Shown piece after piece: positions 13,099 through 34,520 of a stretch of 34,520 nucleotides of DNA. This DNA comes from Bdellovibrionota bacterium (GTDB taxonomy: Bacteria; Bdellovibrionota_C; UBA2361; JBGSMV01), in assembly GCA_041739995.1 (NCBI GenBank), contig JBGSMV010000065.1:1-34520 (forward strand), read 5' to 3'. Under the pieces are notes generated by a model. That model had not been told where the DNA came from and ran no database searches. It saw only the letters and a program-made list of their open reading frames with translations. Position 1 is the stretch's first letter; the number at the start of each line of letters is the position of its first letter. The translations under genes were made by a program, and so were the position numbers.

Positions 13099-13110
13099 GA
13101 TTTCTCCAAA

Positions 13111-14238: not shown

Positions 14239-14266
14239 AGCTGTCCTCTATCTCTGGGGGAGCCCT

Positions 14267-14290: not shown

Positions 14291-14385
14291 TCAACTTTAG
14301 AAGAAGGCGGGCCCCTGCCTCTGGACACAGTTAGGGCGACCATAGCAACACGTCCGCCGCAGATTTAGAGAACACTGAACTAAAA

Positions 14386-15060
14386 TCAGCCCTCCACCGG
14401 GCAACAGGTGACTCTAACCGTCAGAGTCCTCGGGTTGGCTGAGATCGACGAAGTCGATACCGCCAGACCCTTCGGATAAGCCTTTCCCGTCGGTAGCAAC
14501 TCAAGTACTTGCGTCTGACCCGTAAATAATCCGGGCTCCGTATCAGTAAATCCACCTCCAAGCGAGAACTCTCCGGCTAGGCAGACTGACTGCGCGCTTA
14601 GCGCGCCAGTTCCCTGAACCGGCGTACCCACGCGTTCAAGACAAGACGCCACGTCTACTCTACCGGGAAGTCCCTCTATCCCGTCTGATCCTCTGGGACC
14701 GATCGGTCCCTGTGCGCCTTGAGGTCCAGCGGCTCCGGGAGGCCCTTGAAGGCCTTGATCCCCTTTAAGGGCTCCAAGATCAGTCTCCCCTGTAGCGGTT
14801 ACTCCGCTCACACTAAACAGTTGATACTTTCGACTTGGGCAGCGCAGCGTCCCGTCCTGAGTACGCCTTGGGGTTACAAGAAACGGAAGATTTCTCTCCA
14901 CCGCAGCGCTATCGATGCGTCGCAGCGAGCAAACTGCGCCATCCACTCCACGAACGGCCGATTGAGCCTGCGCTGCGTTCGAGCACAGCAGTGCGCCGAA
15001 CACCGCAATAACTGTGGTGGCGACTCCATGCCCTAAAATTTGATGAGATTTCCGAAACAT
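14386..15060 (-). CDS. Secreted collagen-like protein
   Basis: Signal peptide ending AQA. About 12 Gly-X-Y triplets (GDQGLQGPPGAAGPQGAQGPIGPRGSDGIEGLPG, about 14656-14763). Cys-containing flanking domains. GAGG RBS. Confidence 0.8.
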   Translation of the reverse strand: MFRKSHQILGHGVATTVIAVFGALLCSNAAQAQSAVRGVDGAVCSLRRIDSAAVERNLPFLVTPRRTQDGTLRCPSRKYQLFSVSGVTATGETDLGALKGDQGLQGPPGAAGPQGAQGPIGPRGSDGIEGLPGRVDVASCLERVGTPVQGTGALSAQSVCLAGEFSLGGGFTDTEPGLFTGQTQVLELLPTGKAYPKGLAVSTSSISANPRTLTVRVTCCPVEG

Positions 15061-19532: not shown

Positions 19533-19639
19533 CGAAGTTCCTTACTGGATTGCTTAGTTGAAACTAAATCGCGTTCCGATCTACCGCTCCTGACCGACGA
19601 AGGACACACCTGCCAGATTGGGGTCACATGCTGAAGTGC

Positions 19640-22600
19640 CTAATCCTTAACCGTATATAGGTTGCCTTCGCGGGTCAGGTAAAAGCGCTTTTGTTCTTCA
19701 AGATTGAACGGGCGAGAACCGATTCTGCCAAAAACTGCAATTTGATGTCCGGTCTCGTCCACCGCGCGATCTCGCTCAAGAGCTTCCGAAATAGCCATTG
19801 CTGGCCCACCGGTCTTGATCCACGACACCACTTGAGGCTGCACTTCAGGTGAGAATCCATAATAGGCCGGTACTCGGTCAGGGTCGGTGAGCTGCAGCAC
19901 CAGCATTCCGTTGTGCCCATCTGCGACATAAGCAAACGCCGAGGCATTAGTCGCTGCAATCTTCACATCATAGGTATCGTTGATACGCCCGTTGTCGTTG
20001 AAAACTTGGTAGATCTTAGGCTGCTCAGGGCGCTCTACATCAATAATCACCACACCCTGAGACCCGCCCGCCACATAGGCATATGTACGGGCCACGTATA
20101 CATTGCGCGCATCAGGAAGCGGAATGAAGCCTTTCTGTACCTTCGTAGGCCTATCAGGATTGGTGATGTCGACCACATGAAAGCCGCGTTTATCAGTAAC
20201 AAACGCATAGCGGAACTGAATAGCTACCGCGGTAGGATCATCGAACGACAAGACCGAACGAACTTTAGGCTCAAGCGGCACATCGAGGTCAAGAATAACG
20301 AGCTTGTCGTGAGTCATTACGAAGGTGTTCGTTCCGGCCGTAGTAATGTACTTGGCACCGCTAAGTACTCCATCCTCATTCCACGTAAGCGCTCTTTCGA
20401 AGAAATTGTTGCGCGGCTCTCCATCAGACAGCGTATCGATATTGACTAAAATTAGGCCTTCTTCGCTGTCAGAGATGAGCGCGTAGTGATACAGGGCGTG
20501 CATCGGGGTTTCGAGATTTTCAGGCAACTGTTCGCGAAATGGTGCGATAGTCTGGGCCGAAGTCGGCAACACGAATGAGGTCGCATTCTTAGTCGCCACG
20601 TGCGTGTCTTGCCCTAGAGGCGAGAATGGCGCGGTGACGATGCGCTCCGAAAATCCCTTATTAGCGATGTTCGCCACATCGTATGCCCTAAAGCCACCCT
20701 CGCCTGCAGTGGTGTAGAGATATTCACCTCTAAGCTGAAGCGTATTGGTAACTCCGCCTGCCCCATGGTGTCGATGGGAGGTTTGAAGCTCCTTACCTTT
20801 GTCCTCATGCGCCTTATAGTAGTCAGGATACGCATAACGATGCAGAAAGCTCCCAATCACTGATTGAGGCTCATCCCATTCGGTTACCTGAACGCCTTCA
20901 AGTCCATGCTCACCCGTGGCTACCCATGCGTAATGCCCCATCAGGCTCATGAAGTTTGTGCCCTGCAACAATAGCTGAGCCATAATTGCATTGTTGTCGT
21001 TCTTGCTTGAAACGTGACAGTCCTCGCAGTCCTTGGTCTCTGTCTTTCTAACCGTGTGTGGGAAATGCGGCGCAAAGGCTTGAGAACTGTGCCCAGAAGC
21101 AGCAGTAGGCGGCTGCTGAATGTAGATTTTCTGCCGATTAATGTCAGTTGAACTTAAGACCAGCGCACTTGATGATCGTACGGGAACAATCTTATTGCCC
21201 TTGGCTGGCCCATGCAGCCCTAGCTGATAAATATCATCGCGCACCACCTGCGGATTATAGGTCGCCCAGTTTCTAGTAGTCTTGCCATCATAATGCTTGC
21301 TGTCAGCCTTCCAGTTGGCCTGAATCGGAAGATGGCAACCGCCACAGCTCGTCATCCAGGAACTATGACAAGCGAAACACGCCATGTCGTCGTCTGCATG
21401 CGCCAACACTTTGGAGAGCTTGTCGGCATTCGCATCAACAACGCCTAAATCTCCCCAGTGCTGTTCCCCGTCGGCTCCGACCTTCTGCAGCGTTTTGGCA
21501 CGGGAAGATTTCTCATTATACTCAGGACTCTCGCGGTTCACGCTGTCACGCACCTGGCTTATCTTCCACTCAAGTCCGGGGGTAAGCGTGGATCTTTGAA
21601 AGAGATCGTCTCCTTTCCAAATGAACCGCTGATCGCCAAACGGCGTCCTCATCAGGCTCAGATCACGCCCACCTGTTGGTGCGGCAGGTCCGGAGGTAAG
21701 CAACGTCGGTCGCTTCGCCGCCGTTCCATGACAATCTTGGCATTGAATCTCTACGGCCTGAGCTACCTCGCCGTATAGATTCCCGTCACCATGTCCGTCT
21801 TGGTTGAAATGGCAATCGACGCAATGCATGCCGTAGTCGACATGAATGTCCGCCATGTGCACGGCTTTCTTAAACTTGTCTGGATCGTCGAACTTTACAA
21901 CTTTGCCGTCTTTATCCAGCAAATGCCCTTTTCGATCCTTTTTGAATATCGCCCTAAAATTCCAGCCGTGCCCGTGATAATCAGCAAACTGCGTATCTTT
22001 AAGTTTTGGATTAAGCTCAGAGACGCCGCGCAAAAATTCCTCGTCGCTCCACTTTCCTCGAACCACCGCTTCTTCAGGATTTCGCTCGAGCATGGTTTTC
22101 ATTTCATCGCTACTTGGATAACGCTGCTCTTCGGGCCACATGTGCTTGGCGTCACTCTCATAATCCCACATGGTGTAACCGAGAAAAGAATTCACAAACA
22201 TGTTGGGCTGATGCATGTGGCACACCATGCATTGGCTAGTGGGAATGGATCGTGAGAACTCGTGCACGATTGGATGCCCCGCCTCATTCTTGGGAATCAT
22301 CGGATCTTTAGTTTGAGACTCCCCGCCATGCCCAAACTTGGCCCAAGGTCCAGAATGCCGAGGGTCGCGGTCATTCGCGTAAATGCTGTGGCACGCAGTA
22401 CATCCTGAACTACGGAAATCCCCCGGATGGTCGTTTGTTCCCATGAACGACAAATGAGGATCGTTGAGGCGCGTCTTGTGTACGTTAATCACCGGCACTG
22501 AGATTCGACTGCCCGTCGCGGGACCACGATTAGATTGACGAATATCGGGCTTACCGTTCTCTTCTAGGAAATTGGGGTTACCAATCTCTGGGAAGGTAGA

Positions 22601-23431
22601 GCGCACGAAAATTCCGCCGCGTTCAAACACACGAAAGACGTCTCCCGGCGCAATGACTTCCCACTGCGGCATAGGGATGAGCTTTGGAAGCACCCCACGC
22701 GCTGCTTCTTCGGCCGTAGGAGGCTTAGTTGCATGAATCTCTCGTGCAAGGCCGTCACGTCCGTAGCTCTCTCCGAGAATGTAGCGCTTGTACGGTAAAA
22801 TATTATTGTTATAGGGGGCACCACCCCAGAGCATCGCTGAGGTAGTCATAATGCTACGCTCATTCGCATGCACAATATTCGAGTGACATCCTCCGCACGT
22901 CTCTCGCGCAACGCGCAAGTCTCCCGGATTCATGAACTTCACATATTCAGCGCTCTCTTGAAGAGTCTTGGTATAAGCCTGCTCTGGATTACCAGAAGTT
23001 GGCCACCAATCTGGACGTCGCGGGAGCACATGGGACTCAAGCTTAGCTTGCTCCCACTCCGGACTCCACTGCACTAAGTCACGCGCACGCACTGCAGAAT
23101 TTCCGCCATGACAATCCACGCAACCAATCATCACACCTGGATTACGGTGCATGCTGGTCGAATCCATTGGATTGTGACAATCGACACAGCCCTTACTGTT
23201 GTCATAAACCTGAGCAGCAGTAAGGCCAGACGGTACCGGCGAGACAATTTCGGAGTCAGTCGAATCAGATTCCGGATGCGCATAGGCGAACGGCGCAGAG
23301 CGAAGCGCAACGAGCAGACCCAAAAGGGTAGAGATTGCCACAATCAAAACAGCGCCGCGCGTAGGCCAACGGCCTCCCGCCCTTCCCTGCCGATTCGACT
23401 CGCAACAACTCTTCATCGCTTCACGCCCCAT
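19640..23431 (-). CDS. Exported decaheme cytochrome c fused to C-terminal LVIVD-repeat beta-propeller
   Basis: Signal/TM segment, then 10 CxxCH (CVDCH x3, CGGCH x2, CTACH, CMVCH, CQDCH, CFACH, CEDCH). C-terminal repeats such as YAFVTDKRGFHVVDITNP and YAYVAGGSQGVVIIDVERP. TAATG coupling to the upstream gene. Confidence 0.85.
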   Translation of the reverse strand: MGREAMKSCCESNRQGRAGGRWPTRGAVLIVAISTLLGLLVALRSAPFAYAHPESDSTDSEIVSPVPSGLTAAQVYDNSKGCVDCHNPMDSTSMHRNPGVMIGCVDCHGGNSAVRARDLVQWSPEWEQAKLESHVLPRRPDWWPTSGNPEQAYTKTLQESAEYVKFMNPGDLRVARETCGGCHSNIVHANERSIMTTSAMLWGGAPYNNNILPYKRYILGESYGRDGLAREIHATKPPTAEEAARGVLPKLIPMPQWEVIAPGDVFRVFERGGIFVRSTFPEIGNPNFLEENGKPDIRQSNRGPATGSRISVPVINVHKTRLNDPHLSFMGTNDHPGDFRSSGCTACHSIYANDRDPRHSGPWAKFGHGGESQTKDPMIPKNEAGHPIVHEFSRSIPTSQCMVCHMHQPNMFVNSFLGYTMWDYESDAKHMWPEEQRYPSSDEMKTMLERNPEEAVVRGKWSDEEFLRGVSELNPKLKDTQFADYHGHGWNFRAIFKKDRKGHLLDKDGKVVKFDDPDKFKKAVHMADIHVDYGMHCVDCHFNQDGHGDGNLYGEVAQAVEIQCQDCHGTAAKRPTLLTSGPAAPTGGRDLSLMRTPFGDQRFIWKGDDLFQRSTLTPGLEWKISQVRDSVNRESPEYNEKSSRAKTLQKVGADGEQHWGDLGVVDANADKLSKVLAHADDDMACFACHSSWMTSCGGCHLPIQANWKADSKHYDGKTTRNWATYNPQVVRDDIYQLGLHGPAKGNKIVPVRSSSALVLSSTDINRQKIYIQQPPTAASGHSSQAFAPHFPHTVRKTETKDCEDCHVSSKNDNNAIMAQLLLQGTNFMSLMGHYAWVATGEHGLEGVQVTEWDEPQSVIGSFLHRYAYPDYYKAHEDKGKELQTSHRHHGAGGVTNTLQLRGEYLYTTAGEGGFRAYDVANIANKGFSERIVTAPFSPLGQDTHVATKNATSFVLPTSAQTIAPFREQLPENLETPMHALYHYALISDSEEGLILVNIDTLSDGEPRNNFFERALTWNEDGVLSGAKYITTAGTNTFVMTHDKLVILDLDVPLEPKVRSVLSFDDPTAVAIQFRYAFVTDKRGFHVVDITNPDRPTKVQKGFIPLPDARNVYVARTYAYVAGGSQGVVIIDVERPEQPKIYQVFNDNGRINDTYDVKIAATNASAFAYVADGHNGMLVLQLTDPDRVPAYYGFSPEVQPQVVSWIKTGGPAMAISEALERDRAVDETGHQIAVFGRIGSRPFNLEEQKRFYLTREGNLYTVKD

Positions 23432-25299
23432 TAATACGCCAAAATCAAATTTGAAAAGAGACTATAGAGCCGCTCATCACCAAACAAGTTCTCCGTGCCC
23501 GAGGCAGGCAACAACACTGCCCCTCCAAAACGAAACTGAACGTTGTTGTTAAGAAAGGGGCGGTAGACCATCCCCGTGGACAGATCAAAACCTATATTTC
23601 GAGAAATAGAACCGTCTTGACGTGTAGTCTCAAGCACGTCCGTTTGATCAAACTGCAAATAGGAAACGTTATTGATGAGCTTGAGAGTTGGAGTTACTTC
23701 AACGTCCAAGCCGACGTTATAGATTCGAATACCAGGGTTAACAAAGTTTGACTGCCCCTGCTCCTTCCCGGGACGAAGGTTTGCCAACAAACTATTTCTA
23801 TTTACTAGTGAAACTATGCCGCCACCGATGAAGGGGACTCCCTGCCTCTGCCAAAAAGAATTATCCCCACCTGCAAAATTCGGATTGTCAAAGATCGCGT
23901 CGAACCCATTTGCGTTACCATCGAACGCATCGTCATCGCCCGACGCCCAAAACAACGAAGATCTTAATCGAATCCAATCAAAGTCGTAGGAAACTTCGAG
24001 CGCCGCCATTGCCGCACTGACATCAACCTGCTGCCCGGCAATTTGATTGTGACTCTCTGAACCCGTCACATAGTAGAAGGACTCCGTAATATTGAGGCGC
24101 CCGAAGTGTCCGTCCCCATTGAGGCCGAAATAAGTGGTATAAATGTTTTTGGGTCTCTCATCCCCAATCGAGGCGGGGCGAACCAGGAATCCATTCTTGT
24201 CATACTCCGCTTTGTGGTCGCCTGCTTGATCAGCGCGGTAGATGATAGTGCCCTGAACCTGATGCCCCAACACCGGATTGTCCTGACTGTACAGATTGGT
24301 CACCACTACGTCTTCGTAGCGATCCTCGAACCAGGTATTCAGCCCAGAATTGGTGTCCTTTTCGATGCGCCGAAAGTACGCCAAATTGTACTGCCATTGA
24401 TTGTTGTCCCAGTTTCCAAATAAACGAACACCCGGCTCTGAGACATTATAAACGAATCCTCTGAAATCAGCGTTGAACTGCTGCACACCTACTCTAGTGG
24501 ATACGAAGTCATAGCGGTCTGAAATATTGGCGATATGGATGTCCGCGAACAGCTCGAGAGGCCCAATGTACTCATCCCCTCGGGAATTTCCGCGTGAAGC
24601 ATCAACTCTCAAGAGCCCATCTTCCTCAATCGAGGCATAGGTGAAATTCATCACCGGCACGAAACGAAACTCAAAATCTTGCGGCTTGAAGGTTGTGTTT
24701 CCCTGAGTCAGTGAAAAAAGGAAAATAAGGTTCTGATTAAAGAATGCCTGCTCACTCCCCCCGAATTGGTCGGTACTCTCTGGGTGTCTGGAGGAGGACG
24801 GCACCACGGGAGTGGGAATATTTCGATACTCGAATAGTGAATCAGAGGTCAGCCCAAGCTCAACAAACCAAGGATGCGCGGGAGAGCCGAATACCGGAAT
24901 ATCTCCCTTCACCACGTTTTGGTTGTAGGGATCATACCACTTACCGACATACAACTGTCGCCAACGATCGGGCACCGTCAAGAAGTCTGGAGCAGAAGAG
25001 TTAATTTCAGGAACACTCTCAAAAATGTATGGGGAAAAGCTGGTGGATTGAGGACCTTCTCCCGGACGCTGACGCTCAGGGGTTTGTGCCAGTCCTTTTG
25101 CTTCGGGCTCGCTCTCGGAAGCTGCCGCTTCGGGGTTCTTCACTTCCCCTGAAGGAGATACTGAAGCAGTGGCTCCCGGCTCAAGACTATCCACATCTGC
25201 AAACGCAGCTTTCATGAACACAAAGTTCACGAGCAACAGAGTCGCAAAAATGAAACTACCGCGCCTCATGGCCCCACACTTCATGGCCCTACACCCCAT
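23431..25299 (-). CDS. Outer-membrane beta-barrel protein (porin/alginate-export-like)
   Basis: Signal peptide ending AFA. Many alternating aromatic/hydrophobic strands and a C-terminal LFSNLILAY barrel-type signal. Alternative starts at 25284 and 25269. Confidence 0.75.
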   Translation of the reverse strand: MGCRAMKCGAMRRGSFIFATLLLVNFVFMKAAFADVDSLEPGATASVSPSGEVKNPEAAASESEPEAKGLAQTPERQRPGEGPQSTSFSPYIFESVPEINSSAPDFLTVPDRWRQLYVGKWYDPYNQNVVKGDIPVFGSPAHPWFVELGLTSDSLFEYRNIPTPVVPSSSRHPESTDQFGGSEQAFFNQNLIFLFSLTQGNTTFKPQDFEFRFVPVMNFTYASIEEDGLLRVDASRGNSRGDEYIGPLELFADIHIANISDRYDFVSTRVGVQQFNADFRGFVYNVSEPGVRLFGNWDNNQWQYNLAYFRRIEKDTNSGLNTWFEDRYEDVVVTNLYSQDNPVLGHQVQGTIIYRADQAGDHKAEYDKNGFLVRPASIGDERPKNIYTTYFGLNGDGHFGRLNITESFYYVTGSESHNQIAGQQVDVSAAMAALEVSYDFDWIRLRSSLFWASGDDDAFDGNANGFDAIFDNPNFAGGDNSFWQRQGVPFIGGGIVSLVNRNSLLANLRPGKEQGQSNFVNPGIRIYNVGLDVEVTPTLKLINNVSYLQFDQTDVLETTRQDGSISRNIGFDLSTGMVYRPFLNNNVQFRFGGAVLLPASGTENLFGDERLYSLFSNLILAY

Positions 25300-25373
25300 G
25301 ACATTGTCCTACAAACGCCTGTCCTAAAAACTATTATACTACCCTACAGATCAAGTCACTCTTGCTTACCAAA

Positions 25374-27419
25374 CTACAGACCATCGCAAACGTTCTGATC
25401 ATTGCTCCCCGCGAATGGCCCTTCAGGGCAATTCACATATCGCAGTCGCACCCCGGTATCCGAAACTTCCTGCGCATCAGCCCGCATTTCCTTAGGGGCG
25501 TGAAATCCGAGTCCTGCATCCCCTATTCCAGTGTGCCCTACAAAGTCCAAACCTCTCCGACTCGCACTGTAAAACGCTATTAGATCATCTTGGTCAACTC
25601 CGTCGCCGCTGATTCCAAAGCCACCAATCAGGGTCGACCCACGATAGAGCGGCACTCCTCCCGGGAATATTTGCAAGCCGTTTGCGAGATTTCTGGTAAG
25701 CACTCCACCCACACAAGAATCTGGAAAAGAGGCGGACGGAATAAGCTGCAAGGCCTGAGCGATTCCTCCGAACGAAAGATCAAGCTGAAGTCCAGTATTA
25801 AATGGGCTCCACGATCTCCCCTCAGCGGTACCTGGGAAAGGCAAGGAGAAAGGTCCGTTGGGTTTACCCTGAATGCCATCAGGGAAATACGGCCGAGAAA
25901 TATTGGCGATTGAGCGATTTCCAAAGGCCACTCCGTTTGAGAGTGCATCGGGGCCAATCAGAGCTTTGGTCGCGGCCACGTAGCCGCCTTGCCCCATGGC
26001 CGAGAGTCGTTCCGCCGCGCTTGGGGAACTAATTAATGTTACGGAACGAGCCTTCTGAAGCGAAACATCTATGCCGAACACCGGACCATCCGCAGAGCGA
26101 ACAAAGCCAAGCGGCTCTCCATTTATGTCTACTACCCAAATCGAAACGTTGGCTGGATTATCAAGAGGTCTTCGAATCGCAGCGCGAGCGCGCGAAGCGG
26201 TGGTTAGCGCACTATCAAGCAATGCATCCACTTCAGAGGCGGTAAGTGCGATGCCCGCAGGTCCAGTACCGGGGCGCGTCGGGAAGCGTACCGCCCCGCC
26301 ATTTCCGACCAGCACCGCAGAGGGAAGACCACGGCGCGAGGTCCGCATCACCCCAGAAGCAGGCGAGCCGTACATCACACCCTCCCGCACTTCTCCGCGA
26401 GTAAATTCAGGCACCGCCACAAGTCGAGAATCATCGAATGAGGCACCCTCTGACGGAACAGGATCTATCTGATCGTAGGTTAAATCTGTGTAACGCAGAG
26501 ACTTACCCACATTCATATTAGGCGCCACTCGCTCAGAAGGAGCTTCGAATCCTCCTTGAGACGCCATCATCGCCAGGCGTTCTTCAACGTCGTCATCGTA
26601 ATCAGTATTATCCCGATCCAAGGTGTAGCGACCATCGAGCTCAACTCCGAGCCCGCCCACCAAATCTCCCATCTTATAAAGCGGGATACCGCCCGGATCT
26701 GCTGAAAGTCCGAGAGGCAAACCTCTCGGTCCCACACTCCCGCCAACCAGCAACTTGTTTGGCCCGGAAGGCCTGCCGTCTGAAATCTCTGGGTTGCGAG
26801 TAGTGACGTCACTACACAGCAGCTGCGAAAACTGCACGCCAAAAAGCGGACCGCCGGGTTGTCCGCGCTCGGGAGGATTAAAATGCTCTTGAATAATTTG
26901 ACTCGCCGTTCGTGTAGAAAAAGCATTGCCCTGACTACTAAGAAAAGCGCCGGTGCCTGCTTTAGAAATCGCCGCAAGTACACTTGGCACTTCCAGGCCT
27001 TCGAGACCGCCGACTGCCCCAATTTGCCCATCGATCCGCGTAGTCGGTGCCGCACCTTCCATTTGGTAAAGAGCAAGCACGTTCCCTACGCGATCAACTA
27101 CAGAAAAAGTTGCGCTTACACCTAGAAACTGCGCTGAACGAATTGCCTGGGTGACGATTCCCCTTACTTCAGAGGCCGACAATTGCTGGTTGGCACAACT
27201 TCCATCACACCCAAAATCAGCTGCGGCACTGCCTTCCCCACGGCCCGATCCATCGCCACCACCGCCTCCTCCGCTACAACCGGCAACCACTCCGACGGTT
27301 ACGGCAACAATGAGTGCAGAAAGAACTCGGTGCGCACAAAGACCCACAAATCCGGGGCAATCCCAGCGAATGATATCGGCAAACCTCATTTTGGCTAACC
27401 TCATTTTAGAAAATCTCAC
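25374..27419 (-). CDS. Lipoprotein with two GlcG/HbpS-like heme-binding domains
   Basis: Lipobox VAG-C followed by a Gly linker. Two copies of VVDxxG...KAxT/S...PGGxPLY...L(V/I)GGxG(V/I). GTGA overlap with the upstream gene. Confidence 0.8.
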   Translation of the reverse strand: MRFSKMRLAKMRFADIIRWDCPGFVGLCAHRVLSALIVAVTVGVVAGCSGGGGGGDGSGRGEGSAAADFGCDGSCANQQLSASEVRGIVTQAIRSAQFLGVSATFSVVDRVGNVLALYQMEGAAPTTRIDGQIGAVGGLEGLEVPSVLAAISKAGTGAFLSSQGNAFSTRTASQIIQEHFNPPERGQPGGPLFGVQFSQLLCSDVTTRNPEISDGRPSGPNKLLVGGSVGPRGLPLGLSADPGGIPLYKMGDLVGGLGVELDGRYTLDRDNTDYDDDVEERLAMMASQGGFEAPSERVAPNMNVGKSLRYTDLTYDQIDPVPSEGASFDDSRLVAVPEFTRGEVREGVMYGSPASGVMRTSRRGLPSAVLVGNGGAVRFPTRPGTGPAGIALTASEVDALLDSALTTASRARAAIRRPLDNPANVSIWVVDINGEPLGFVRSADGPVFGIDVSLQKARSVTLISSPSAAERLSAMGQGGYVAATKALIGPDALSNGVAFGNRSIANISRPYFPDGIQGKPNGPFSLPFPGTAEGRSWSPFNTGLQLDLSFGGIAQALQLIPSASFPDSCVGGVLTRNLANGLQIFPGGVPLYRGSTLIGGFGISGDGVDQDDLIAFYSASRRGLDFVGHTGIGDAGLGFHAPKEMRADAQEVSDTGVRLRYVNCPEGPFAGSNDQNVCDGL

Positions 27420-29239
27420 AGTCCTAACCCCAAAATAATATCAGAGACAGATCGCTTCCTTTCGAAGGGCATAGCCAGCGAATTGTGATACGAATGGCAC
27501 AGTACGCAATCGCTCGTTACCTTACCCACTTCTGGATGCTCCACATGGCAGCTTCTGCAGCTGTCAATTTTTGGTAAAAGTACATCTGTGGTACGCGTAG
27601 ACTGTCGAACTCCTGCATGACAGTCTTCGCATCCAACCTCTTCATGCGAACCATGCGAGAAGATCGAGGCCGGCATCCAACGCTCTGGAATCTGCGGTTC
27701 AAGGATCTTGAAACGTGACGTCGCGTTCTCTCGTATCTCCGCTTCAGAAATCTTCTTCTCTTCGACGGCATGACACAGGAAACAAGCGGTACGAGTAAAC
27801 AAAACGCGCTCAGAGCCTCGGCTTTCCTTTTCAACAAAGCTTCGCGAAAAATCATCTGCACTCTGCGCCTGTTGAACTGCCTCGATACTGGCCTTGCCAG
27901 GAATCCTGCCACCGCGTTGCTGAAACTCTCGCCGTATCGGAGAAACTTTTTCGCTACTCAATAGGAGCTTGGCGTACTCCGCATAGAGGAAGCGATACAC
28001 TACATTAGGGTCTCCGTGCGGAACCTCTACACGCGGAAGCCGCTCATCGAATTCGAGACTGTGGCACTCTTGGCAATGCTTTTCAAAGCTTATCCGCTCA
28101 ACTGTTCTAAAATCGTCATTGAGCCCGTGGCAGTAACCACAATCCAGGGTCTTTTGCCCCGTGCGGGTACGGAGGTCCTTCTCAAGATGCACTTTGTGAT
28201 TGAGTTTGATGTTGGAAACATCTTTAAGCTTGGCAGGGTCATCAAGGCGAACTCGCCTCGTCTTCTCTGCGGGAGCTCCAGGCAGTGTCACTCCAAAGAG
28301 AGACAATCCAGGACCTGGCGTTCCAGGAAGGGACTGAAGCGTCACCGAGAACTCAGGGTGATCGTCAAATCCAGTCACCACAGCCACCGACGCTTTCTCA
28401 TTCAAAGGCGCAAGCACACTATCAATTCGCGCATGACAATCAGTGCAAAGAGCAGACTGATGAACAATCAAGCCGTGCGCCTTTCCAATTGCGCCGCTAT
28501 CCCCGACGCTGCCGTGTGAGGACCCATTATGATCCATGTGACAAGTTGCGCAGGACGGCTCAACCCCATCACGCAATGCGGCGTGCGCGGTGAACGGCTT
28601 GGCATGATCGCTCATGGTATGACAGGCGAGGCACTTTTCATCGGAAATTCGTGAGAACTGACCTTCGTGACACGATTGGCAGTTATGCTCAATCATCTTG
28701 TGACTAGATTCAATCGGCCCGCTCGACCACGAAGCTCGGCGCTCAGTCAGCACTGGCAGCACGAAGTAGACAGCGAGTACTACGGCAACAATAGAAAGGT
28801 TCAACAACTGAAAGGAAGGAAGCTTTCTGGCAACGTGTAATTCTTGAACGTCACGACGAATCTTGGCGTCTAAATCGAGTGTCTCGCCCCGCTTTTGCCG
28901 AAAGAGCTCAATCACACCTTCAGTTGCGCGAACGGTGAACTGCACAGAGCCGAAACTAAGAACATCACCAAGCACAAGTTCATGCCGAGCAACCGGGCGC
29001 TTATTTACTAGCACCCCGCTTAGCGAAGCCTGGTCTTCAACGAAGACCCCCATGCCGCCTTGAGTCTCTCTCGGTCGAGAAATGATTTTAGCATGTACCA
29101 GCGAGACAGAAGAGTCGCTGAGCAAAATATCACAACCAGCACCACGCCCGATCGTCAGCTCGTCCTTGTCGTGATCATTCGATCGCACATCACAGGTGCC
29201 ATTCGGGCTGATATTTTCTACTGTGACGCGAAGTCTCAT
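27416..29239 (-). CDS. Membrane-anchored FHA domain + decaheme cytochrome c
   Basis: FHA motifs LTIGRG...D..L.D..VS..HA, one TM helix, then 10 CxxCH (CQSCH, CLACH, CATCH, CTDCH, CGYCH, CQECH, CFLCH, CEDCH, CRSCH, CVLCH). ATG at 29239 preferred. Confidence 0.85.
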   Translation of the reverse strand: MRLRVTVENISPNGTCDVRSNDHDKDELTIGRGAGCDILLSDSSVSLVHAKIISRPRETQGGMGVFVEDQASLSGVLVNKRPVARHELVLGDVLSFGSVQFTVRATEGVIELFRQKRGETLDLDAKIRRDVQELHVARKLPSFQLLNLSIVAVVLAVYFVLPVLTERRASWSSGPIESSHKMIEHNCQSCHEGQFSRISDEKCLACHTMSDHAKPFTAHAALRDGVEPSCATCHMDHNGSSHGSVGDSGAIGKAHGLIVHQSALCTDCHARIDSVLAPLNEKASVAVVTGFDDHPEFSVTLQSLPGTPGPGLSLFGVTLPGAPAEKTRRVRLDDPAKLKDVSNIKLNHKVHLEKDLRTRTGQKTLDCGYCHGLNDDFRTVERISFEKHCQECHSLEFDERLPRVEVPHGDPNVVYRFLYAEYAKLLLSSEKVSPIRREFQQRGGRIPGKASIEAVQQAQSADDFSRSFVEKESRGSERVLFTRTACFLCHAVEEKKISEAEIRENATSRFKILEPQIPERWMPASIFSHGSHEEVGCEDCHAGVRQSTRTTDVLLPKIDSCRSCHVEHPEVGKVTSDCVLCHSYHNSLAMPFERKRSVSDIILGLGL

Positions 29240-29243
29240 CCCA

Positions 29244-30110
29244 CTAGCCCCGATAGAAGAAAACGACAAAAATATGAATCAGCACTGCGACCATCAAGGC
29301 GCAAGAAACCGGCAAGTGAATATACAGCCACACTTTTAACTTGGTAAGCGTTTTGACTTCATGCTGCACTCGATTGATCAGCTCTCGCTTTCTATCAGCG
29401 CCTTGCACGAGTGAAATCCCGTCGGCGCTCTCTGCGTCCGGCAACTTCGCCAGCAACGTGGCGAGACTCTCAGGATCGAAATTTGCAGCCGAGTGCCCAA
29501 GCAACATTGACCAAAAGCGCGGTTTGAATTCACTCCCGCCAAGCTGCTGGTCGACGAAGCGTTTAACCTCCATTAGGTGGTCACTTTTCTGCGCAACTAA
29601 TGCACTAAGATTTTGTTCAGCGATGTGGATCTGTTGAACGATATCCTTAACGGTGCCACCCCCTCGATGCGACTGCACCTGAGAGGCGAGCGTTGCGTAG
29701 TAGAGCGCTCCCCAAATACCGCTCACCACCACAATCATCATCAACACGTACGCAATCGTGTGAATATTCCAGCCGAACTGAAACCCTGCGTGCAGCGGCA
29801 CGATTATGGAAAGCGCCACGCCCAACCACACATGCGCTGCGAGAGTGCCTTTAAGAGTTGTAGTCTGAGAGTGATAAGAACGCTTTCGGATGCCGTACCA
29901 CATTAGGTAGGCAATCCCCGCTGCCGCGATCCCACCCACGGTATAGCCGTAGAACGTTCCGCCATTTGGGACACCCAGAGGCTCGTCCAGCCAATACCAG
30001 ACGATCAATACGAGCGTGAGCAGGATGTTCGCCCACAACCAGCGATATCCTCTATAGCTAAAAAAAGTATCGTTATTCACGCGCTCTGCTACCACTAAAT
30101 TCAAATTCAT
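29244..30110 (-). CDS. Inner-membrane protein with two H-x13-H helices (ferric-reductase-like / di-heme b)
   Basis: About 5 TM segments. His pairs HVWLGVALSIIVPLH and HLPVSCALMVAVLIH. Confidence 0.7.
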   Translation of the reverse strand: MNLNLVVAERVNNDTFFSYRGYRWLWANILLTLVLIVWYWLDEPLGVPNGGTFYGYTVGGIAAAGIAYLMWYGIRKRSYHSQTTTLKGTLAAHVWLGVALSIIVPLHAGFQFGWNIHTIAYVLMMIVVVSGIWGALYYATLASQVQSHRGGGTVKDIVQQIHIAEQNLSALVAQKSDHLMEVKRFVDQQLGGSEFKPRFWSMLLGHSAANFDPESLATLLAKLPDAESADGISLVQGADRKRELINRVQHEVKTLTKLKVWLYIHLPVSCALMVAVLIHIFVVFFYRG

Positions 30111-30139
30111 CTGCCCTGCTCTAGGGGCACCTCACCCAC

Positions 30140-32491
30140 CTAGCGACCCTTCCGAGAAGTAATTTCCAATAACTGCCGTGGATTTACCCGCATTGCAGCT
30201 CCGGTTGGACAGGCACGCACACATGCCGGTCCACCTTTAAGATCTTCGCATTGATCACACTTGGCGGCCTTCGCGGGGCCCTCTTCCGCATCCTTCTTCG
30301 AAAGGCCTAGCAAGGACAGCAAGGAGAATCCCCCGTGGTCGGGATGGTCATGCACAAGCTGAATGACGCCGTAAGGGCAATTTCGCACGCAATTGCCGCA
30401 CCCAATGCAGGAGTCACGAATAATCACTTCGCCATCAGGCAGACGCGTAAGCGCGTCCGGGGGGCAGTCCAGCATGCAGAGAGGATTTTCACAGTGCCGA
30501 CAAGAAATCGGAATTTGAATATTGGCGAGGGACTTTCCGCCTTTGCGGTCTAATCGACTAAAGCCGCGATGCGTGGACTCGCATGCTTTCTCGCAGTTGT
30601 CGCAACCAATACATAAGTCAGAGTCAATCAGAAGAATATTGTCGGCGTCGGTTACCCCTTCAGCCATCATGAAATCAAGCAACTGACCAGTGGTCTCGGC
30701 GGTTTCGCTCACCACGTTCTCGACTTGGCGCGCTCGCACCAGTTCGTTGACGCGTTGACGCACGCGCGGATTTTCATCGAGAAGGTGCTGAAATGCGCTC
30801 TTGGTTAAGATAATCGTTTCACAACCCACTGCGGCGGTGACAGTCGCGCTGCGTGGTGCGTCCGCTTCTGAAAGAAGCGCCATTTCACCGACGATGCGCC
30901 CTGCCGGAACGTACGTTTGAGTTACATCGGCACCACGCCTATTGCGACGCGAAATTTTGACCGAGCCTTTTCGAATTACGTATAGAACATCGCCTACATC
31001 GCCTTCACGGAAGAGCACTTCACCCTTCTTGAAGTTTTTCATCTTGGCGTTCTTGATTAGCTCCCTAAGAAAGTCTGCGTCCGCTTCGGGGAAAACCTGC
31101 GTTTCAAGAGCACGAAGCATGAACACTTCGTCCAAGGCTCGCTTAAGTGAGGGCACGGAGTTGATCAACTTCAACAACTGCTTCCGAGGGGATTCAAGCA
31201 GCAATGCCTGTTTGGTGACACGAACGCGCGCCACGCGCCTACGTCCTGAAAGCAGTCCCATCTCGCCAAAGAAATTTCCCACATCTATCGGGATCTTTCG
31301 TTCCTCGCTGAGTTCGACGGCGACTTGACCGGAGACAATACTAAAAAAAGTATCGGTGTAGTCGTTTCGCTCAAACACCACACTTCCTGCGTCGAGCTGG
31401 TGGATAGTTGAGTCGATCACAAGTTCGCGAAACTGCGCGTCCGAAAGCTCTTTAAACAGAGGAAGCTGCGATCGAATATCGGCCAGGACCTTCTTGGGAT
31501 CGCCTTCGATATCTTTTAATTTCTCAGCAATAAGCACCTGATCGGCAGGCTCTACTTCATTTCCAAGAATGTGCTCTATGACCTCGTATCCTTGGTTGAT
31601 GGCGTGCTTGATAAGGGGGTATCCAATCAGGGCACCAAGAACGAAAAGCCCTGGAACGCTCGATTCGTAGCGCCCGTTGACCACGGGAACCGCCGTTGGG
31701 TCTTTGCTAGAAAACTCTATGCCACATTTCTCGAGAAACCCGCGCGGCAAAATTCCGCCTAGGCGCGCAATGATGTGGTTACATTTTAGTGCGACTTCGC
31801 CTTCGGCGGTTTCAATATGGACTGTCTCTGCTTCAACACGGGACATTTCAGAGTTAATGAAATGCCTAATCTTGCCGGCGCGAATGGCCTCCATGATCTT
31901 TGCGCCGTTTGCTTCCTTGGCTCGAGGAAACTCCGCACCTCTGTTGAGGAGCGACACGGTATTTTTTTCACAGAGAGCGAGCGCATTTTCAATTGCGGCA
32001 TCACCCGCGCCGACCACCAGCACGTCCTTGCCAACGAAGGCTGCCGGATCAGAAAGCGTATAGGTCACGTGCGGGAGATCTTCTCCGGGCACTCCTAATT
32101 TTCGGGGGGTTCCTTGTACTCCGATCGCTAATACTACGTTCTTGGCGGTAACCTCTCCATCGGAGCAGCTGATCTTGAATCCGCCTTCAATACGTTCAAT
32201 GGCCTTAACTTCGGCCTTACGAACATTTGCCCCAAGGCTGGTTATCGCTTGAGTCCACCCCTCAAGGATTTCTTCCCGGCTGCCTTGTTCAAACGGGATG
32301 TGGGCACGCAGTGGAAGCTTGGCTGGTTCGGCCATTACCAACTTCCCCAGCTGGTAATCAAATATGGTGTTTCCTAGCTCCTTACGTTCGATAAGAACGT
32401 GTGAAGTCTTGTGGTGCGCCGCATTGGAAGCGGCTCCAAGTCCTGCGGGGCCGGCCCCGATAATTGCAACCTCATGCTCAACCGCGCTCAT
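30140..32491 (-). CDS. FAD/NAD(P)H oxidoreductase (TrxB/YpdA-like) + 2 cNMP-binding domains + four-cluster [4Fe-4S] ferredoxin
   Basis: IIGAGPAG and VVGAGDAA followed by NRG. cNMP cassettes FGEMGLL...R.A.V and VGEMALL....PRSATV. Sixteen Cys in CIGCDNCEKAC, CRHCENPLCMLDC, CIGCGNCVRNC and CDQC-x8-CVRAC. Confidence 0.88.
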   Translation of the reverse strand: MSAVEHEVAIIGAGPAGLGAASNAAHHKTSHVLIERKELGNTIFDYQLGKLVMAEPAKLPLRAHIPFEQGSREEILEGWTQAITSLGANVRKAEVKAIERIEGGFKISCSDGEVTAKNVVLAIGVQGTPRKLGVPGEDLPHVTYTLSDPAAFVGKDVLVVGAGDAAIENALALCEKNTVSLLNRGAEFPRAKEANGAKIMEAIRAGKIRHFINSEMSRVEAETVHIETAEGEVALKCNHIIARLGGILPRGFLEKCGIEFSSKDPTAVPVVNGRYESSVPGLFVLGALIGYPLIKHAINQGYEVIEHILGNEVEPADQVLIAEKLKDIEGDPKKVLADIRSQLPLFKELSDAQFRELVIDSTIHQLDAGSVVFERNDYTDTFFSIVSGQVAVELSEERKIPIDVGNFFGEMGLLSGRRRVARVRVTKQALLLESPRKQLLKLINSVPSLKRALDEVFMLRALETQVFPEADADFLRELIKNAKMKNFKKGEVLFREGDVGDVLYVIRKGSVKISRRNRRGADVTQTYVPAGRIVGEMALLSEADAPRSATVTAAVGCETIILTKSAFQHLLDENPRVRQRVNELVRARQVENVVSETAETTGQLLDFMMAEGVTDADNILLIDSDLCIGCDNCEKACESTHRGFSRLDRKGGKSLANIQIPISCRHCENPLCMLDCPPDALTRLPDGEVIIRDSCIGCGNCVRNCPYGVIQLVHDHPDHGGFSLLSLLGLSKKDAEEGPAKAAKCDQCEDLKGGPACVRACPTGAAMRVNPRQLLEITSRKGR

Positions 32492-32699
32492 TCACTCTCT
32501 CGAAGTTCGAATTTTGAAGTGCCCGAGGCAGTCTCCACGCGCCAAACTGCCCAACAGCGGTTCAACCGACAAAGCTGCTTAGAAAATTGAATTGCTTTCG
32601 GGCCGTACTAGACCATAGAATCTGCCACCCCTCAAGAATTTGATGTGGGGATTCATTAACTTGAGAGGCGGGATGAGGCCAAGCACCAGGCATGACTAT

Positions 32700-32735
32700 T
32701 TTCAAGAGACAATCAGGTTTCAAGAGACAATCAGG
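32700..32735. repeat. 18-bp perfect tandem repeat TTTCAAGAGACAATCAGG x2 in the divergent promoter region
   Basis: Copies at 32700-32717 and 32718-32735. Related T(C/T)AAGAGA cores at 32805 and 32817. Confidence 0.8.
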
Positions 32736-32912
32736 CGCTCGGAGTCGCGGGCGACGGGTGACCCAAAAGTCAGTGGCCCGGCACTCATCCGCGGCGCTAT
32801 GACTTTAAGAGAGGCCTCAAGAGAATTGTTCTCAGAGAACCCAATCTCGACTGTTCTACTCAAGTATGCGAGCTCCTTTCTTGGCCTGACGCGGACTAGA
32901 GGATTCTTCAGC

Positions 32913-34271
32913 ATGAATGCCATGACCTCCTCAATTTTTTCTAGCCGGTCATCACCCCTCCAGCTGCTGTTTCTCTGTGGGTGCTTTCAACTTGCCACCG
33001 TGATGTTGAGCTGCGGGACCGTCACTGCTGAAGCCGGCGTTGCGCATAGCTCGGGAGCCAAGGTAATGGGAGTTGCGTCTTGTGCTTCTTCTAACTGCCA
33101 TGGCGCCGTAGCGCCCCGAGATGCGACCTCTATTTTGCAGAATGAGTACACGACGTGGACCAAGCATGACTCTCATGCCAAGGCCTATCTTTCACTCTTG
33201 AATGAAGACTCCAGAAGAATAGCTGAGCATCTCGGAATTGAGCGTGCCGAGAACGCCCCTCTTTGTCTTGCCTGCCATGCGACTTATGTCGCTGATGAAG
33301 GTTTGCGTGGAGAGAAGTTCCGACTTGAGGATGGTGTTGGCTGTGAGTCCTGTCATGGGGCTTCTGAGAAGTATCTTGGCCCTCACACAGAGGAGGGATC
33401 CACTCATGCGAGAAATCTATCTCAAGGAATGGCCGATCTTGTCTCCTCGGAAAAGCGTGCGGAGTTCTGTCTTGGTTGTCACTTAGGCAATGATGAGAAG
33501 TACGTCGATCACAAGCTGATTGGTGCGGGGCATCCGCGACTGACGTTTGAACTTGATACCTTTACCGCGTTGCAGCCGGTACACTGGGATGTGGATGAGG
33601 ATTATATCACGCGTAAAGAGGACTATGTCCCTGCTCGTGCATGGCTTGTCGGTCAGATTGAGCGTGCCGATGCGATGTTAGACACGATCTCGTCGGAGGC
33701 TCGTAGTCGTGCAGGCAGTGGTCCGCTTGCCGGTCCTGAGTTGACCCTACTTTATTGCTACACCTGTCATCATAGTCTCACTGAGGATCAGTGGCAAAAG
33801 CGTGCCTATGGTGGAAAGGCTGGCGAACTGCGCTTGAATCTTTCGTCTTTTGAAATTGTTGGTCGTGCGATGACCAATATGAATGCAGCGCTGGCGGCTA
33901 AGTTAGTGTCACGCGTTGAAGCGCTGCATAGCGCTGCTGATACCGCAGCTGCGGTTAAGGCACTGCGCGAAGCTTTGTCAGAGGCGCGAAAAATCGCATC
34001 GAGTCAGAAGTATTCACGCGGCAGTCTCGACGATTTACTGAGCGCGCTAGCGTCTTTCGGTGCCGCTTCAGCGGAGTCTCTCGAGTATCCAACATTTGAG
34101 GTTGCTGAGCAGATTGCGATGGGAATTTCCAGTGTAGCTAGCAGCATTGAGCCCGATGGATCTCTCCACAAGCGAGAGATCGATCAGATCTACAGCGCAC
34201 TGAACGAGCCCGAGTCCTTCCAACCCGAGCTCTTCGTCACCGCCTGCTCCCAACTCCTCCACCAGCTCTAA
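32913..34271 (+). CDS. Exported cytochrome c554-like multiheme protein (4 CxxCH + 1 Cx4CH) with helical C-domain
   Basis: G..SCASSNCHG, W.KHD.HAKAY, CLACH, DGVGCESCHG, CLGCH, GAGHPRL.FE and CYTCHH. ATG at 32913 preferred (GAGG upstream, gives a signal peptide) over the TTG at 32640. Confidence 0.82.
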   Translation: MNAMTSSIFSSRSSPLQLLFLCGCFQLATVMLSCGTVTAEAGVAHSSGAKVMGVASCASSNCHGAVAPRDATSILQNEYTTWTKHDSHAKAYLSLLNEDSRRIAEHLGIERAENAPLCLACHATYVADEGLRGEKFRLEDGVGCESCHGASEKYLGPHTEEGSTHARNLSQGMADLVSSEKRAEFCLGCHLGNDEKYVDHKLIGAGHPRLTFELDTFTALQPVHWDVDEDYITRKEDYVPARAWLVGQIERADAMLDTISSEARSRAGSGPLAGPELTLLYCYTCHHSLTEDQWQKRAYGGKAGELRLNLSSFEIVGRAMTNMNAALAAKLVSRVEALHSAADTAAAVKALREALSEARKIASSQKYSRGSLDDLLSALASFGAASAESLEYPTFEVAEQIAMGISSVASSIEPDGSLHKREIDQIYSALNEPESFQPELFVTACSQLLHQL

Positions 34272-34281
34272 TAAGGCACAG

Positions 34282-34374
34282 CTCTAAAAGGTACCACCTT
34301 CCTCCTGTAAACCCCCGCCCCCTGAGCAGGCGCCCTCCTCTAAAAGGAAGCCCTCTAAAAGGTAGCACCTTCCT
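34282..34374. repeat. Cluster of CTCTAAAAGG repeats with two AAAAGGTA(C/G)CACCTTCCT elements (REP-like)
   Basis: CTCTAAAAGG at 34282, 34338 and 34353, the last two 15 bp apart. Elements at 34286-34303 and 34357-34374 differ at 1 of 18 positions. Confidence 0.7.
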
Positions 34375-34520
34375 GTGGAGAAACTTCTTGAGCGAAATGC
34401 CGAGAATGGGGTCATGCCGAAGCCACTTCGTGACACCGACCCATCGCTCTATCGTCTAATCACCATTAGAACGCTAGATGCTCGCCTATGGATGATTCCG
34501 TCCAGAAACATGGAGAAGCT

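Follow-up and report, generated by a model that had tools for sequence, protein, structure and literature searches.

The gene cluster described here consists of seven genes, g1 to g7, at positions 19640 to 34271 of contig JBGSMV010000065.1 (assembly GCA_041739995.1) from a Bdellovibrionota bacterium; the whole stretch of 34,520 nucleotides that was analysed is referred to as the window. The closest described systems have been named, but not characterised. For PCC4, named from sequence by He et al. (2017, Front Microbiol 8:1584, PMC5566968), the passages available state no function; they list a porin, cytochromes with 4, 5 and 10 haems, an iron-sulfur (Fe-S) gene and a protein with five transmembrane (TM) helices, likened to ferric reductases and NADPH oxidases (NOX). 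The cluster ptdABCDEFG (bioRxiv 10.1101/2023.11.21.568154) is transcribed in marine Alphaproteobacteria, and in the accessible part of the preprint its function is called 'completely unknown'. A gene trio with no assigned function in Ferrigenium straubiae (bioRxiv 10.64898/2026.01.22.701106), which includes the FHA-nonahaem cytochrome 'NHC', was, according to the accessible text, expressed under all tested conditions; no redox motif was recognized by its authors in the 5-TM protein, and they think it more likely that electrons are delivered to quinone. Finally, porin-cytochrome clusters (EET1-4) are reported from Acidobacteriota and Verrucomicrobiota in a peat preprint (10.64898/2026.05.27.727921), the available portion of which does not allow their overlap with the present cluster to be told.

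The seven genes form one conserved unit. Their domains and motifs, their conservation and co-occurrence, and a swap of the input module between phyla were observed directly, and are interpreted here, with moderate confidence, as one regulated outward electron path that ends in g6 as a reductase. The first-pass annotation of the window had proposed a seven-gene electron conduit across the envelope and had regarded it as the best candidate for an undescribed system. The cluster indeed matches no characterised complex, but a type of this kind has already been named, as PCC4 and as ptdABCDEFG.

Organization and conservation of the seven-gene unit

The window is a complete contig of a 3.8-Mb genome with a completeness of 91%. 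Genes g1 to g6 are six open reading frames (ORFs) on the minus strand, running from 32491 down to 19640, and g7 is divergent on the plus strand. The successive junctions from g1 to g6 are a 29-nucleotide gap, a 26-nucleotide overlap, a 4-nucleotide overlap, a 74-nucleotide gap and a 1-nucleotide overlap. The features are as follows:

30140..32491, minus strand: g1, cytoplasmic flavoprotein with two cyclic nucleotide (cNMP)-binding domains and a predicted four-[4Fe-4S] module (Pfam, NCBIfam)
29244..30110, minus strand: g2, 5-TM inner-membrane protein, predicted dihaem b-type cytochrome, with a cytoplasmic helical insert at about residues 145-255
27416..29269, minus strand: g3, cytoplasmic FHA domain, one TM helix and periplasmic decahaem cytochrome c (Pfam, motifs)
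25374..27419, minus strand: g4, lipoprotein with two GlcG/HbpS-like (DUF336) domains (Pfam, lipobox)
23431..25299, minus strand: g5, predicted outer-membrane 18-strand AlgE-like barrel with a disordered N-terminal segment of about 100 residues (AlphaFold2)
19640..23431, minus strand: g6, secreted decahaem cytochrome c (about residues 60-820) with a C-terminal LVIVD beta-propeller region (about 830-1263)
32913..34271, plus strand: g7, c554-like pentahaem cytochrome with a signal peptide (ORF listed from 32640)
32492..32912, no strand: divergent intergenic (promoter) region between g1 and g7, read directly in the sequence

The order of the six minus-strand genes, the divergent c554-like gene, the domains of each member and a total of about 25 haems had all been given in the first-pass annotation, and are upheld by the ORF positions, by Pfam and NCBIfam and by the motif counts, which amount to 25 c-type haem motifs across the cluster (10 in g3, 10 in g6 and 4+1 in g7). 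The gene order follows the envelope layers from inside to outside, as had also been noted, and the predicted membrane sides of the products agree with each other, as judged from sequence and from the positive-inside loop R75-K-R of g2. Genes for cytochrome c maturation were found in the genome, which in addition encodes two haem-copper oxidases.

For g7 the earlier description stands in part. The c554-like pentahaem assignment is confirmed by matches to Pfam Cytochrome_C554 (1.7e-14) and to cytochrome c554 in the PDB (1bvb, E 4.6e-5), and by four CxxCH motifs and one CxxxxCH motif, all five of which are at least 90% conserved in 54 sequences. The start at 32640 is probably wrong, as the first 91 codons of the listed ORF (32640-32912) are unconserved in the 54 homologues. 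The ATG at 32913, which yields a protein of 452 residues and is preceded by a purine-rich stretch some 9 nucleotides upstream, is probably the true start. Within the intergenic region two perfect tandem copies of 18 nucleotides are found at 32700-32735; they overlap a minus-strand promoter-like match and may constitute a regulator site. Promoter and terminator sites predicted in a scan of 19000-34520 were no commoner than in shuffled sequence.

Homologous loci were sought by scanning species genomes with an alignment of 12 closer sequences, which gave 112 loci, 80 of which were fetched and searched with all seven proteins by tblastn; g3 had 111 relatives among the candidates scored. The fetched loci comprise a closer set of 38 of Bdellovibrionota type (L002-L039) and a distant set of 42 from Nitrospirota, Acidobacteriota, Rokubacteria/Methylomirabilota, Verrucomicrobiia, Planctomycetota and Pseudomonadota. 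Going by record titles, at least six phyla carry the cluster (Bdellovibrionota, Nitrospirota, Acidobacteriota, Methylomirabilota/Rokubacteria, Verrucomicrobiota and Planctomycetota), with Pseudomonadota in addition. In 20 of the 38 closer loci the full set of seven is found in the order of the window. Of the remaining 18, 17 span less than 18 kb because the contig ends, and keep that order for the genes they hold. Among the distant loci all seven genes were found in 5 of 42. The five 'core-only' genomes that were checked all have a g6 homologue further along the same contig, a few kb beyond the fetched DNA; one of these five homologues is broken by stop codons. In 32 of 33 loci g5 and g6 are neighbours on the same strand.

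A similar picture is obtained at the level of whole genomes. Among 124 species genomes of the window's own phylum, g6 is present in 70 and g2 in 69. Both genes are found in 66 genomes and neither in 51, while 4 have g6 without g2 and 3 have g2 without g6. Six of the seven discordant genomes are less than 90% complete; these counts are descriptive and not a statistical test, the relatives not being independent. The expectation that the genes would be found together elsewhere is therefore borne out, both by the closer loci and by the co-occurrence of g6 and g2 among the 124 genomes.

It might be argued that the locus merely juxtaposes two unrelated modules, i.e., an inner-membrane redox complex of g7 and g1-g3, and a group g4-g6 with another role, for instance in adhesion or in exporting a polymer. 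The AlgE fold of g5 (see below) would fit such an arrangement, as would a copy of g1-g3 alone at locus L028, the four-gene cores L047 and L079, which lack g5 and g6 inside the flank, and the Acidobacteriota loci in which g5-g6 lie on the other strand or several kb off. This division is nevertheless highly improbable in view of the co-occurrence of g6 and g2 (seven discordant genomes, n=124), the presence of g6 on the same contig in five of five 'core-only' genomes, and the ten haems of g6, which imply that an electron partner is needed. In addition, no alginate or other polysaccharide synthesis genes were seen among the 22 window ORFs scanned.

Three further observations were made on the distribution. 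L028 is a complete locus holding g1-g3 only, as a second copy in a genome that also holds the full set (L004), so that the inner-membrane module can stand on its own without g4-g7. In genome G005, of Rokubacteria type, the g6 homologue (L086/L087) contains in-frame TGA codons and frame changes, which could reflect decay, an assembly error or recoding. DNA near-identical to window positions 23000-32900 occurs in four runs of a single study, labelled as hot-spring and biofilm metagenomes; no RNA run was listed among the sequencing runs holding this segment.

The NAD(P)H entry, the transmembrane step and the switches

The g1 protein (783 residues) matches, by Pfam, Pyr_redox_3 (1e-36), two cNMP_binding domains (1e-35, 122 bits) and 4Fe-4S dicluster domains; a TM helix or signal peptide was looked for and not found. 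Its flavin domain is thioredoxin-reductase-like in sequence and shows conserved GxGxxG and GxGxxA motifs in 32 sequences, in which a conserved redox cysteine pair (CxxC) was not found; the flavin would therefore hand its electrons to the Fe-S clusters and not to a disulfide. The Fe-S module is HydN/DmsB-like, with a match to PF13247 (Fer4_11) of 2.3e-9, and the 16 cysteines that are invariant across the 32 sequences fit the binding of four [4Fe-4S] clusters.

The strongest argument for NAD(P)H at the inner end of the chain is provided by the comparison between phyla. The flavoprotein entry is found in the window, and an unrelated NuoE/F/G-like module takes its place in Acidobacteriota. In loci L055 and L046 (Pfam) the upstream gene combines a 2Fe-2S thioredoxin-like domain with Complex1_51K and NADH_4Fe-4S domains, and overlaps the start of a g1 form in which a NuoG-like N-terminus (Fer2_4, NADH-G_4Fe-4S_3) stands in place of the flavin domain, followed by two cNMP domains and an Fe-S module that match those of the window protein. 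Of 87 sequences searched, 29 have a gene resembling the NuoE-NuoF fusion of L055 immediately upstream of their g1 homologue. The same position is thus taken in different phyla by NAD(P)H-oxidising modules of two unrelated kinds, and this lends support to the NAD(P)H feed proposed in the first-pass annotation. L055 also contains, at 2026-3459 on the minus strand, between the g4 and g7 homologues, a separate flavoprotein with Pyr_redox_2 and dimerisation domains, which may correspond to PtdC; this locus is from Acidobacteriota.

The nature of the inner partner also bears on the direction of flow. In the model proposed for PCC4 by He et al. (2017) electrons would run inwards, with a donor outside the cell or in the periplasm, such as Fe(II) or Mn(II), oxidised at g6/g5 and the electrons passed via g3 and g2 to quinone or NAD(P)+. 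Both PCC4 and the g1-g3 module have been found in Fe(II) oxidisers (Zetaproteobacteria, Hyphomicrobium, Ferrigenium), as far as the accessible parts of the papers tell, and the motifs of g2 also resemble those of quinone-reactive b cytochromes (PMC5566968, passages available). We consider inward uptake improbable, however. The conserved NAD(P)H-type module, swapped between unrelated types, points to pyridine nucleotides and not quinone as the inner partner, and most carriers are, by the titles of their loci, not iron oxidisers. Judged from standard potentials, the reduction of NAD(P)+ by Fe(II) against the membrane potential would be highly endergonic, and the cluster has no energy-coupling subunit, whereas export would be downhill and helped by the membrane potential, so that an outward direction appears to be the more plausible one.

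The g2 protein (288 residues) has about five TM helices and contains the motifs H93-x13-H107 and H265-x13-H279. The two H-x13-H helices had been recognized in the first-pass annotation, and their significance is reinforced by the invariance of all four histidines, together with G131, G134 and W261, in 40 relatives from several phyla. The tryptophan of the first motif is present in the consensus, but is a threonine in the window protein. These motifs are those by which the PCC3/PCC4 inner-membrane protein is defined, i.e., WX3HX13H, occurring twice, and SGXXG (definition from the available passages of PMC5566968). In the AlphaFold2 model (predicted local distance difference test, pLDDT, 89) five TM helices are seen with a helical insert of about 110 residues, which is placed in the cytoplasm by the positive-inside rule from the loop R75-K-R. 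In the predicted topology each pair of histidines lies at one membrane face, and each histidine-bearing helix presents one histidine per face. Such an arrangement, derived from sequence and model, suggests two stacked bis-His b-type haems. The nearest Atlas clusters carry the automatic name 'ferric reductase like transmembrane component'. A Foldseek search with the model returned nothing at E <= 0.001, and a wider fold search gave only generic four-helix bundles, including a designed two-haem protein (Z 10.5) and cytochrome b561 (Z 9.8). A profile match to a designed helical protein among the PDB sequences falls in the cytoplasmic insert and was set aside as compositional.

On the periplasmic side, g3 (617 residues) has a TM helix at residues 155-173 and ten CxxCH motifs, all invariant in 23 sequences; a sequence search of the PDB matched its FHA and c7-type domains only. 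The FHA domain (residues 39-107; Pfam 4.5e-12, 46.7 bits against a cut-off of 20.7) keeps the phosphothreonine-binding residues R42, H59 and N89 invariant in 12 sequences, with S56 in the consensus, and these residues suggest that the domain binds phosphopeptides.

The second set of regulatory modules, the cNMP domains of g1, is placed between the flavin and the Fe-S chain and is kept in all three g1 forms scanned with Pfam. Domain 2 has the canonical phosphate-binding cassette GE...RSA, while in domain 1 (GE...RVA) the serine is replaced. The two signalling inputs that had been proposed are thus both present, with ligand-binding residues kept. A gene for a CHASE2 class III cyclase and one for a FecR-domain protein adjoin the g3 homologue in 23 loci (Pfam-checked in L055), and this cyclase is likely a dedicated source of signal for the cNMP domains. 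At L055 the two genes (11377-14716) are convergent on the g3 homologue, and the loci concerned are from Acidobacteriota and Verrucomicrobiia. The window genome itself contains four cyclase genes and at least nine genes for Ser/Thr kinases. Another reader of cyclic nucleotides is encoded at window positions 12421-14238 on the minus strand, where a Crp-family regulator (cNMP-binding and helix-turn-helix domains) lies beside a DAO-family flavin adenine dinucleotide (FAD) oxidoreductase.

The presence of two signalling domains built into redox proteins, and of adjacent cyclase and FecR-domain genes in the 23 loci, could also be taken to mean that the system is a redox sensor, carrying little current and reporting the redox state of the periplasm or the exterior through the haem chain to FHA/cNMP signalling; HbpS-like proteins participate in redox sensing in Streptomyces. 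Such a function is very doubtful, as 27 haems, four Fe-S clusters and a dehydrogenase far exceed the needs of a sensor, and with Pfam and NCBIfam no output domain, such as that of a kinase or a transcription factor, was found fused to a member of the cluster.

The outer-membrane end and the proposed electron path

The g4 protein (681 residues) carries the lipobox VAGC, with its cysteine (Cys48) conserved to at least 90% among 53 sequences. It matches the HbpS-like family of Pfam in three stretches (3.8e-17, 63 bits); weak sequence matches in the PDB are to 2a2l and to EfgA (6bws). A role as haem relay was considered and dropped, since neither a conserved histidine nor a conserved methionine was found among the 53 sequences.

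The g5 protein (622 residues) has a signal peptide and matches no Pfam family at E <= 0.01. Its AlphaFold2 model has an overall pLDDT of 70, with values of 80-93 over most of a barrel of 18 long strands and below 50 in the loops and at the N-terminus. AlgE heads the Foldseek matches (E 1e-16, TM-score 0.63-0.69 when normalised to target length), porins of 16-18 strands come next, and MtrB is not among the best 50. The MtrB barrel has 26 strands. An MtrAB-type barrel, as assumed in the first-pass annotation, is at variance with this 18-strand, AlgE-like model.

The g6 protein (1263 residues), whose start overlaps the stop of g5 by one nucleotide, has a signal peptide, ten CxxCH motifs and LVIVD repeats (Pfam 7e-13, 48 bits), three of which are found as strict LVIVD-like motifs by a simple regular expression. 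It is the best-conserved member of the cluster: its median identities are 66% inside the phylum and 50% between phyla, compared to 37% and 26% for g3. In 33 sequences 415 of its 1263 positions are at least 90% conserved, and besides the histidines of the haem motifs it has 15 further conserved ones. It carries 1.3 haems per 100 residues, compared to 2.3 in g3. It is this high conservation that makes g6 appear more like an enzyme than a surface wire, and taken together the features of the outer end suggest a specific enzyme with a specific channel, which they fit better than a promiscuous surface wire. A single-sequence search of the PDB yielded no meaningful relative of g6. Profile matches of 13-17 bits to the haem-pair stretch of octahaem and pentahaem nitrite reductases (E 0.01-0.15) were discounted. 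The family is large, as 7999 of 8000 scored protein clusters match at E <= 1e-50 in a search that was saturated, and no functional name occurs among the 120 g6-family clusters listed. No description of a haem-LVIVD fusion was found by full-text searches of the literature.

The first-pass annotation had favoured a classic extracellular conduit, in which g6 would be exported to the surface and held by g5, and NAD(P)H electrons would reduce Fe(III) or Mn(IV) oxides or humics in an MtrCAB-like manner. The translational coupling of the barrel gene to a multihaem cytochrome gene speaks for it, and so do the LVIVD repeats and a weak 'choice-of-anchor B' match (23.9 bits, cut-off 100), both known from cell-surface proteins. 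However, the 18-strand, AlgE-like barrel modelled for g5 would be too narrow for a haem domain, g6 has neither a lipobox nor a match to an MtrC domain, and no secretion genes were seen nearby. Furthermore, g6 is far more conserved than g3, whereas surface cytochromes are usually among the fastest-evolving in extracellular electron transfer systems, and the host has two haem-copper oxidases. Two papers do interpret related clusters as extracellular conduits (bioRxiv 10.1101/2023.11.21.568154 and PMC5566968, from the passages available), and related clusters of Acidobacteriota and Verrucomicrobiota are transcribed in deep peat, according to the accessible text of the peat preprint and with the reservation on overlap made above. 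On balance the conduit is considered unlikely, although it has a real claim to consideration.

In the outward path that we favour, NAD(P)H would reduce the flavin of g1, whose four [4Fe-4S] clusters would carry the electrons to the cytoplasmic face of g2. There, two stacked bis-His b haems (H93/H265 inside, H107/H279 outside) would take them across the inner membrane, and the membrane-anchored decahaem protein g3 would bring them into the periplasm, with the soluble pentahaem g7 probably acting as shuttle. The terminal module would be formed by g6 with the AlgE-like outer-membrane channel g5 and the lipoprotein g4. As the catalytic end, g6 would be a reductase, whose acceptor would enter via g5 or be met at the outer membrane. 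The switches would be the pair of cNMP domains in g1 and, at the cytoplasmic end of g3, the FHA domain; since ungated flow would drain both NAD(P)H and the membrane potential, the path is presumably kept shut by them. We infer cofactor binding, the direction of flow, gating, the contacts between partners, quinone independence and the acceptor from the observations presented above.

Several points weigh against this interpretation. No member of the whole family has been the subject of any experiment. The g2 protein matches no Pfam family at E <= 0.01, and its Z scores are under the level that is diagnostic for helical bundles. It may have a quinone site, and exchange with the quinone pool was proposed instead by He et al. 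(2017, PMC5566968, passages available). In loci L047, L050, L060, L079 and L081 the g1 form consists of cNMP and Fe-S domains only, and no flavoprotein was seen nearby in these five loci, three of which were Pfam-checked. The inner-membrane module also occurs in obligate Fe(II) oxidisers, where a drain on NAD(P)H is hard to rationalise. No conserved haem ligand was found in g4, and g6, for which no substrate is indicated, may lie in the periplasm or at the cell surface.

A more specific form of the outward path is put forward tentatively and at less than even confidence, i.e., that the cluster is a two-membrane bacterial counterpart of the eukaryotic NADPH-oxidase principle, a second-messenger-gated, quinone-independent exporter of NAD(P)H electrons, with g6 as a new class of haem enzyme at an AlgE-like channel. 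Possible reactions of g6 would then be the production of extracellular superoxide, the reduction of a specific soluble oxidant or the mobilisation of iron. Many mostly aerobic bacteria would in that case hold a switchable route for cytoplasmic reducing power to the envelope, which bears on the reduction of iron, manganese or organic matter outside the cell by aerobic heterotrophs, or on their formation of extracellular reactive oxygen species. The outward path as such, if correct, would represent a common quinone-free way to move NAD(P)H electrons across the inner membrane and the first electron-transfer chain with cyclic-nucleotide and FHA modules inside its redox subunits, and the cluster would contain an unknown multihaem enzyme. 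Concrete biochemical tests are opened by the input-module swap (flavoprotein versus NuoEFG-like) and by the linked cyclase genes.

Elsewhere in the window, three ORFs at 5007-7121 (plus strand), 9307-12270 (minus) and 7345-8496 (plus), of 704, 987 and 383 residues, match no Pfam family at E <= 1e-4. Proline utilisation is encoded at 1782-4830 (plus) by two adjacent genes (PutA_N with Pro_dh, and an aldehyde dehydrogenase) and not by a fused PutA. A small protein at 14386-15060 (minus) has a sub-threshold match to the collagen triple-helix repeat (26.9 bits, cut-off 27.2).

Comparison with known systems

The likeness to PCC4 is drawn from its description in the available passages of PMC5566968. 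In both, a porin gene stands beside a multihaem cytochrome gene, which here takes the form of the 1-nucleotide overlap of g5 and g6. Both have a 5-TM protein with WX3HX13H on TM3 and TM5 and SGXXG on TM4, matching g2, and an Fe-S gene (pfam13247) upstream of the 5-TM gene, here g1 with its 29-nucleotide gap before g2. Tetrahaem (by CxxCH) and decahaem cytochromes and further redox genes are likewise shared. The haem numbers differ, being 4, 5 and 10 in PCC4 and 4+1, 10 and 10 here, and the partner of the barrel is here a decahaem-LVIVD fusion. FHA domains, cNMP domains or a GlcG/HbpS lipoprotein are not mentioned in those passages, and the model given there runs inward to the quinone pool, in contrast to the outward direction proposed here.

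The ptd products are the same in kind as most members of the present cluster, as far as the accessible part of that preprint describes them. PtdE (cNMP and 4Fe-4S) corresponds to the C-terminal part of g1 and PtdC (FAD/NAD(P) oxidoreductase) to its N-terminal part; PtdF (ferric-reductase-like) corresponds to g2, PtdG (decahaem) to g3, PtdD (tetrahaem) to g7 and PtdB (porin) to g5. Unlike the ptd proteins, the PtdC and PtdE counterparts are fused into one protein here, g3 carries an FHA domain, and g4 lacks a ptd counterpart. The neighbour of the porin also differs, being PtdA (pentahaem with a beta-sandwich) in ptd and the decahaem-LVIVD protein g6 here.

The Ferrigenium straubiae trio (bioRxiv 10.64898/2026.01.22.701106, accessible text) comprises an FHA-cytochrome, a 5-TM protein and a [4Fe-4S] protein, equivalent to g3, g2 and the C-terminal part of g1. 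Its cytochrome has nine haems instead of ten, the trio adjoins nirK and an SHP-like gene, and no barrel, propeller cytochrome or HbpS-like gene is described with it. The uet cluster of Tenderiales was also considered, and is a different system.

With MtrCAB, PioAB and MtoAB the cluster shares the side-by-side encoding of multihaem cytochromes and an outer-membrane barrel. No family-level sequence match to these systems was found with Pfam, NCBIfam or a fold search. The barrel g5 is 18-stranded and AlgE-like, an MtrA-type cytochrome that could fill it is missing, as is a lipoprotein MtrC, and the input is a cytoplasmic NAD(P)H module instead of a quinol dehydrogenase. For MtrB, 28 TM regions have been predicted (quoted in the passages available of PMC5566968). 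The MtrA/DmsE-type decahaem model decahem_SO (TIGR03508) matches g7 only, with 21 bits against a cut-off of 192, and g3 is anchored by an N-terminal TM helix, unlike the soluble cytochromes of the MtrA/DmsE family. As to the MtrC/OmcA type, only sub-threshold PF22113 matches were obtained, for g3 and g7.

In its logic the inner-membrane part resembles NOX and ferric reductases (FRE) as well as MsrQ, in which two stacked bis-His b haems, held by two helices with the H-x13-H spacing, receive electrons from cytoplasmic NAD(P)H and pass them to an acceptor outside the membrane. The activity of eukaryotic NOX is switched by second messengers and phosphorylation. Unlike NOX/FRE, however, g2 does not match Ferric_reduct (PF01794) and has five TM helices instead of six. 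It ends after TM5, without the fused FAD_binding_8/NAD_binding_6 domains, the dehydrogenase being the separate protein g1 with a Pyr_redox_3 fold, and a four-cluster Fe-S relay and a multihaem chain as acceptor are found here. The Tmc/Hmc complexes of sulfate reducers and Cbc of Geobacter combine a cytoplasmic Fe-S protein, a membrane b cytochrome and a periplasmic multihaem cytochrome in one complex. They are built from other protein families, to which no family match was found here, and have no NAD(P)H module, regulatory domains or outer-membrane part.

The best structural match of g5 is AlgE (PDB entries 3rbh and 4afk), with which it shares the 18-strand fold. AlgE works with the outer-membrane lipoprotein AlgK, and by analogy g5 may work with the lipoprotein g4. 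The identity to AlgE amounts to only 12-14%, there is no match to Pfam Alginate_exp, and g5 has long conserved loops and an N-terminal extension.

In conclusion, the seven-gene cluster is a distinct variant of an already named, uncharacterised cluster type. It is distinguished by the fused flavoprotein-cNMP-Fe-S protein, the FHA domain on the decahaem cytochrome, the GlcG/HbpS lipoprotein and the decahaem-LVIVD terminal protein. Relative to the PCC4, ptd, Ferrigenium and peat papers, in so far as their text was available, the new elements are the exchange of one input module for another, the cyclase genes that are linked to the cluster, a barrel with an AlgE-like fold and the conservation gradient that points to g6 as an enzyme.

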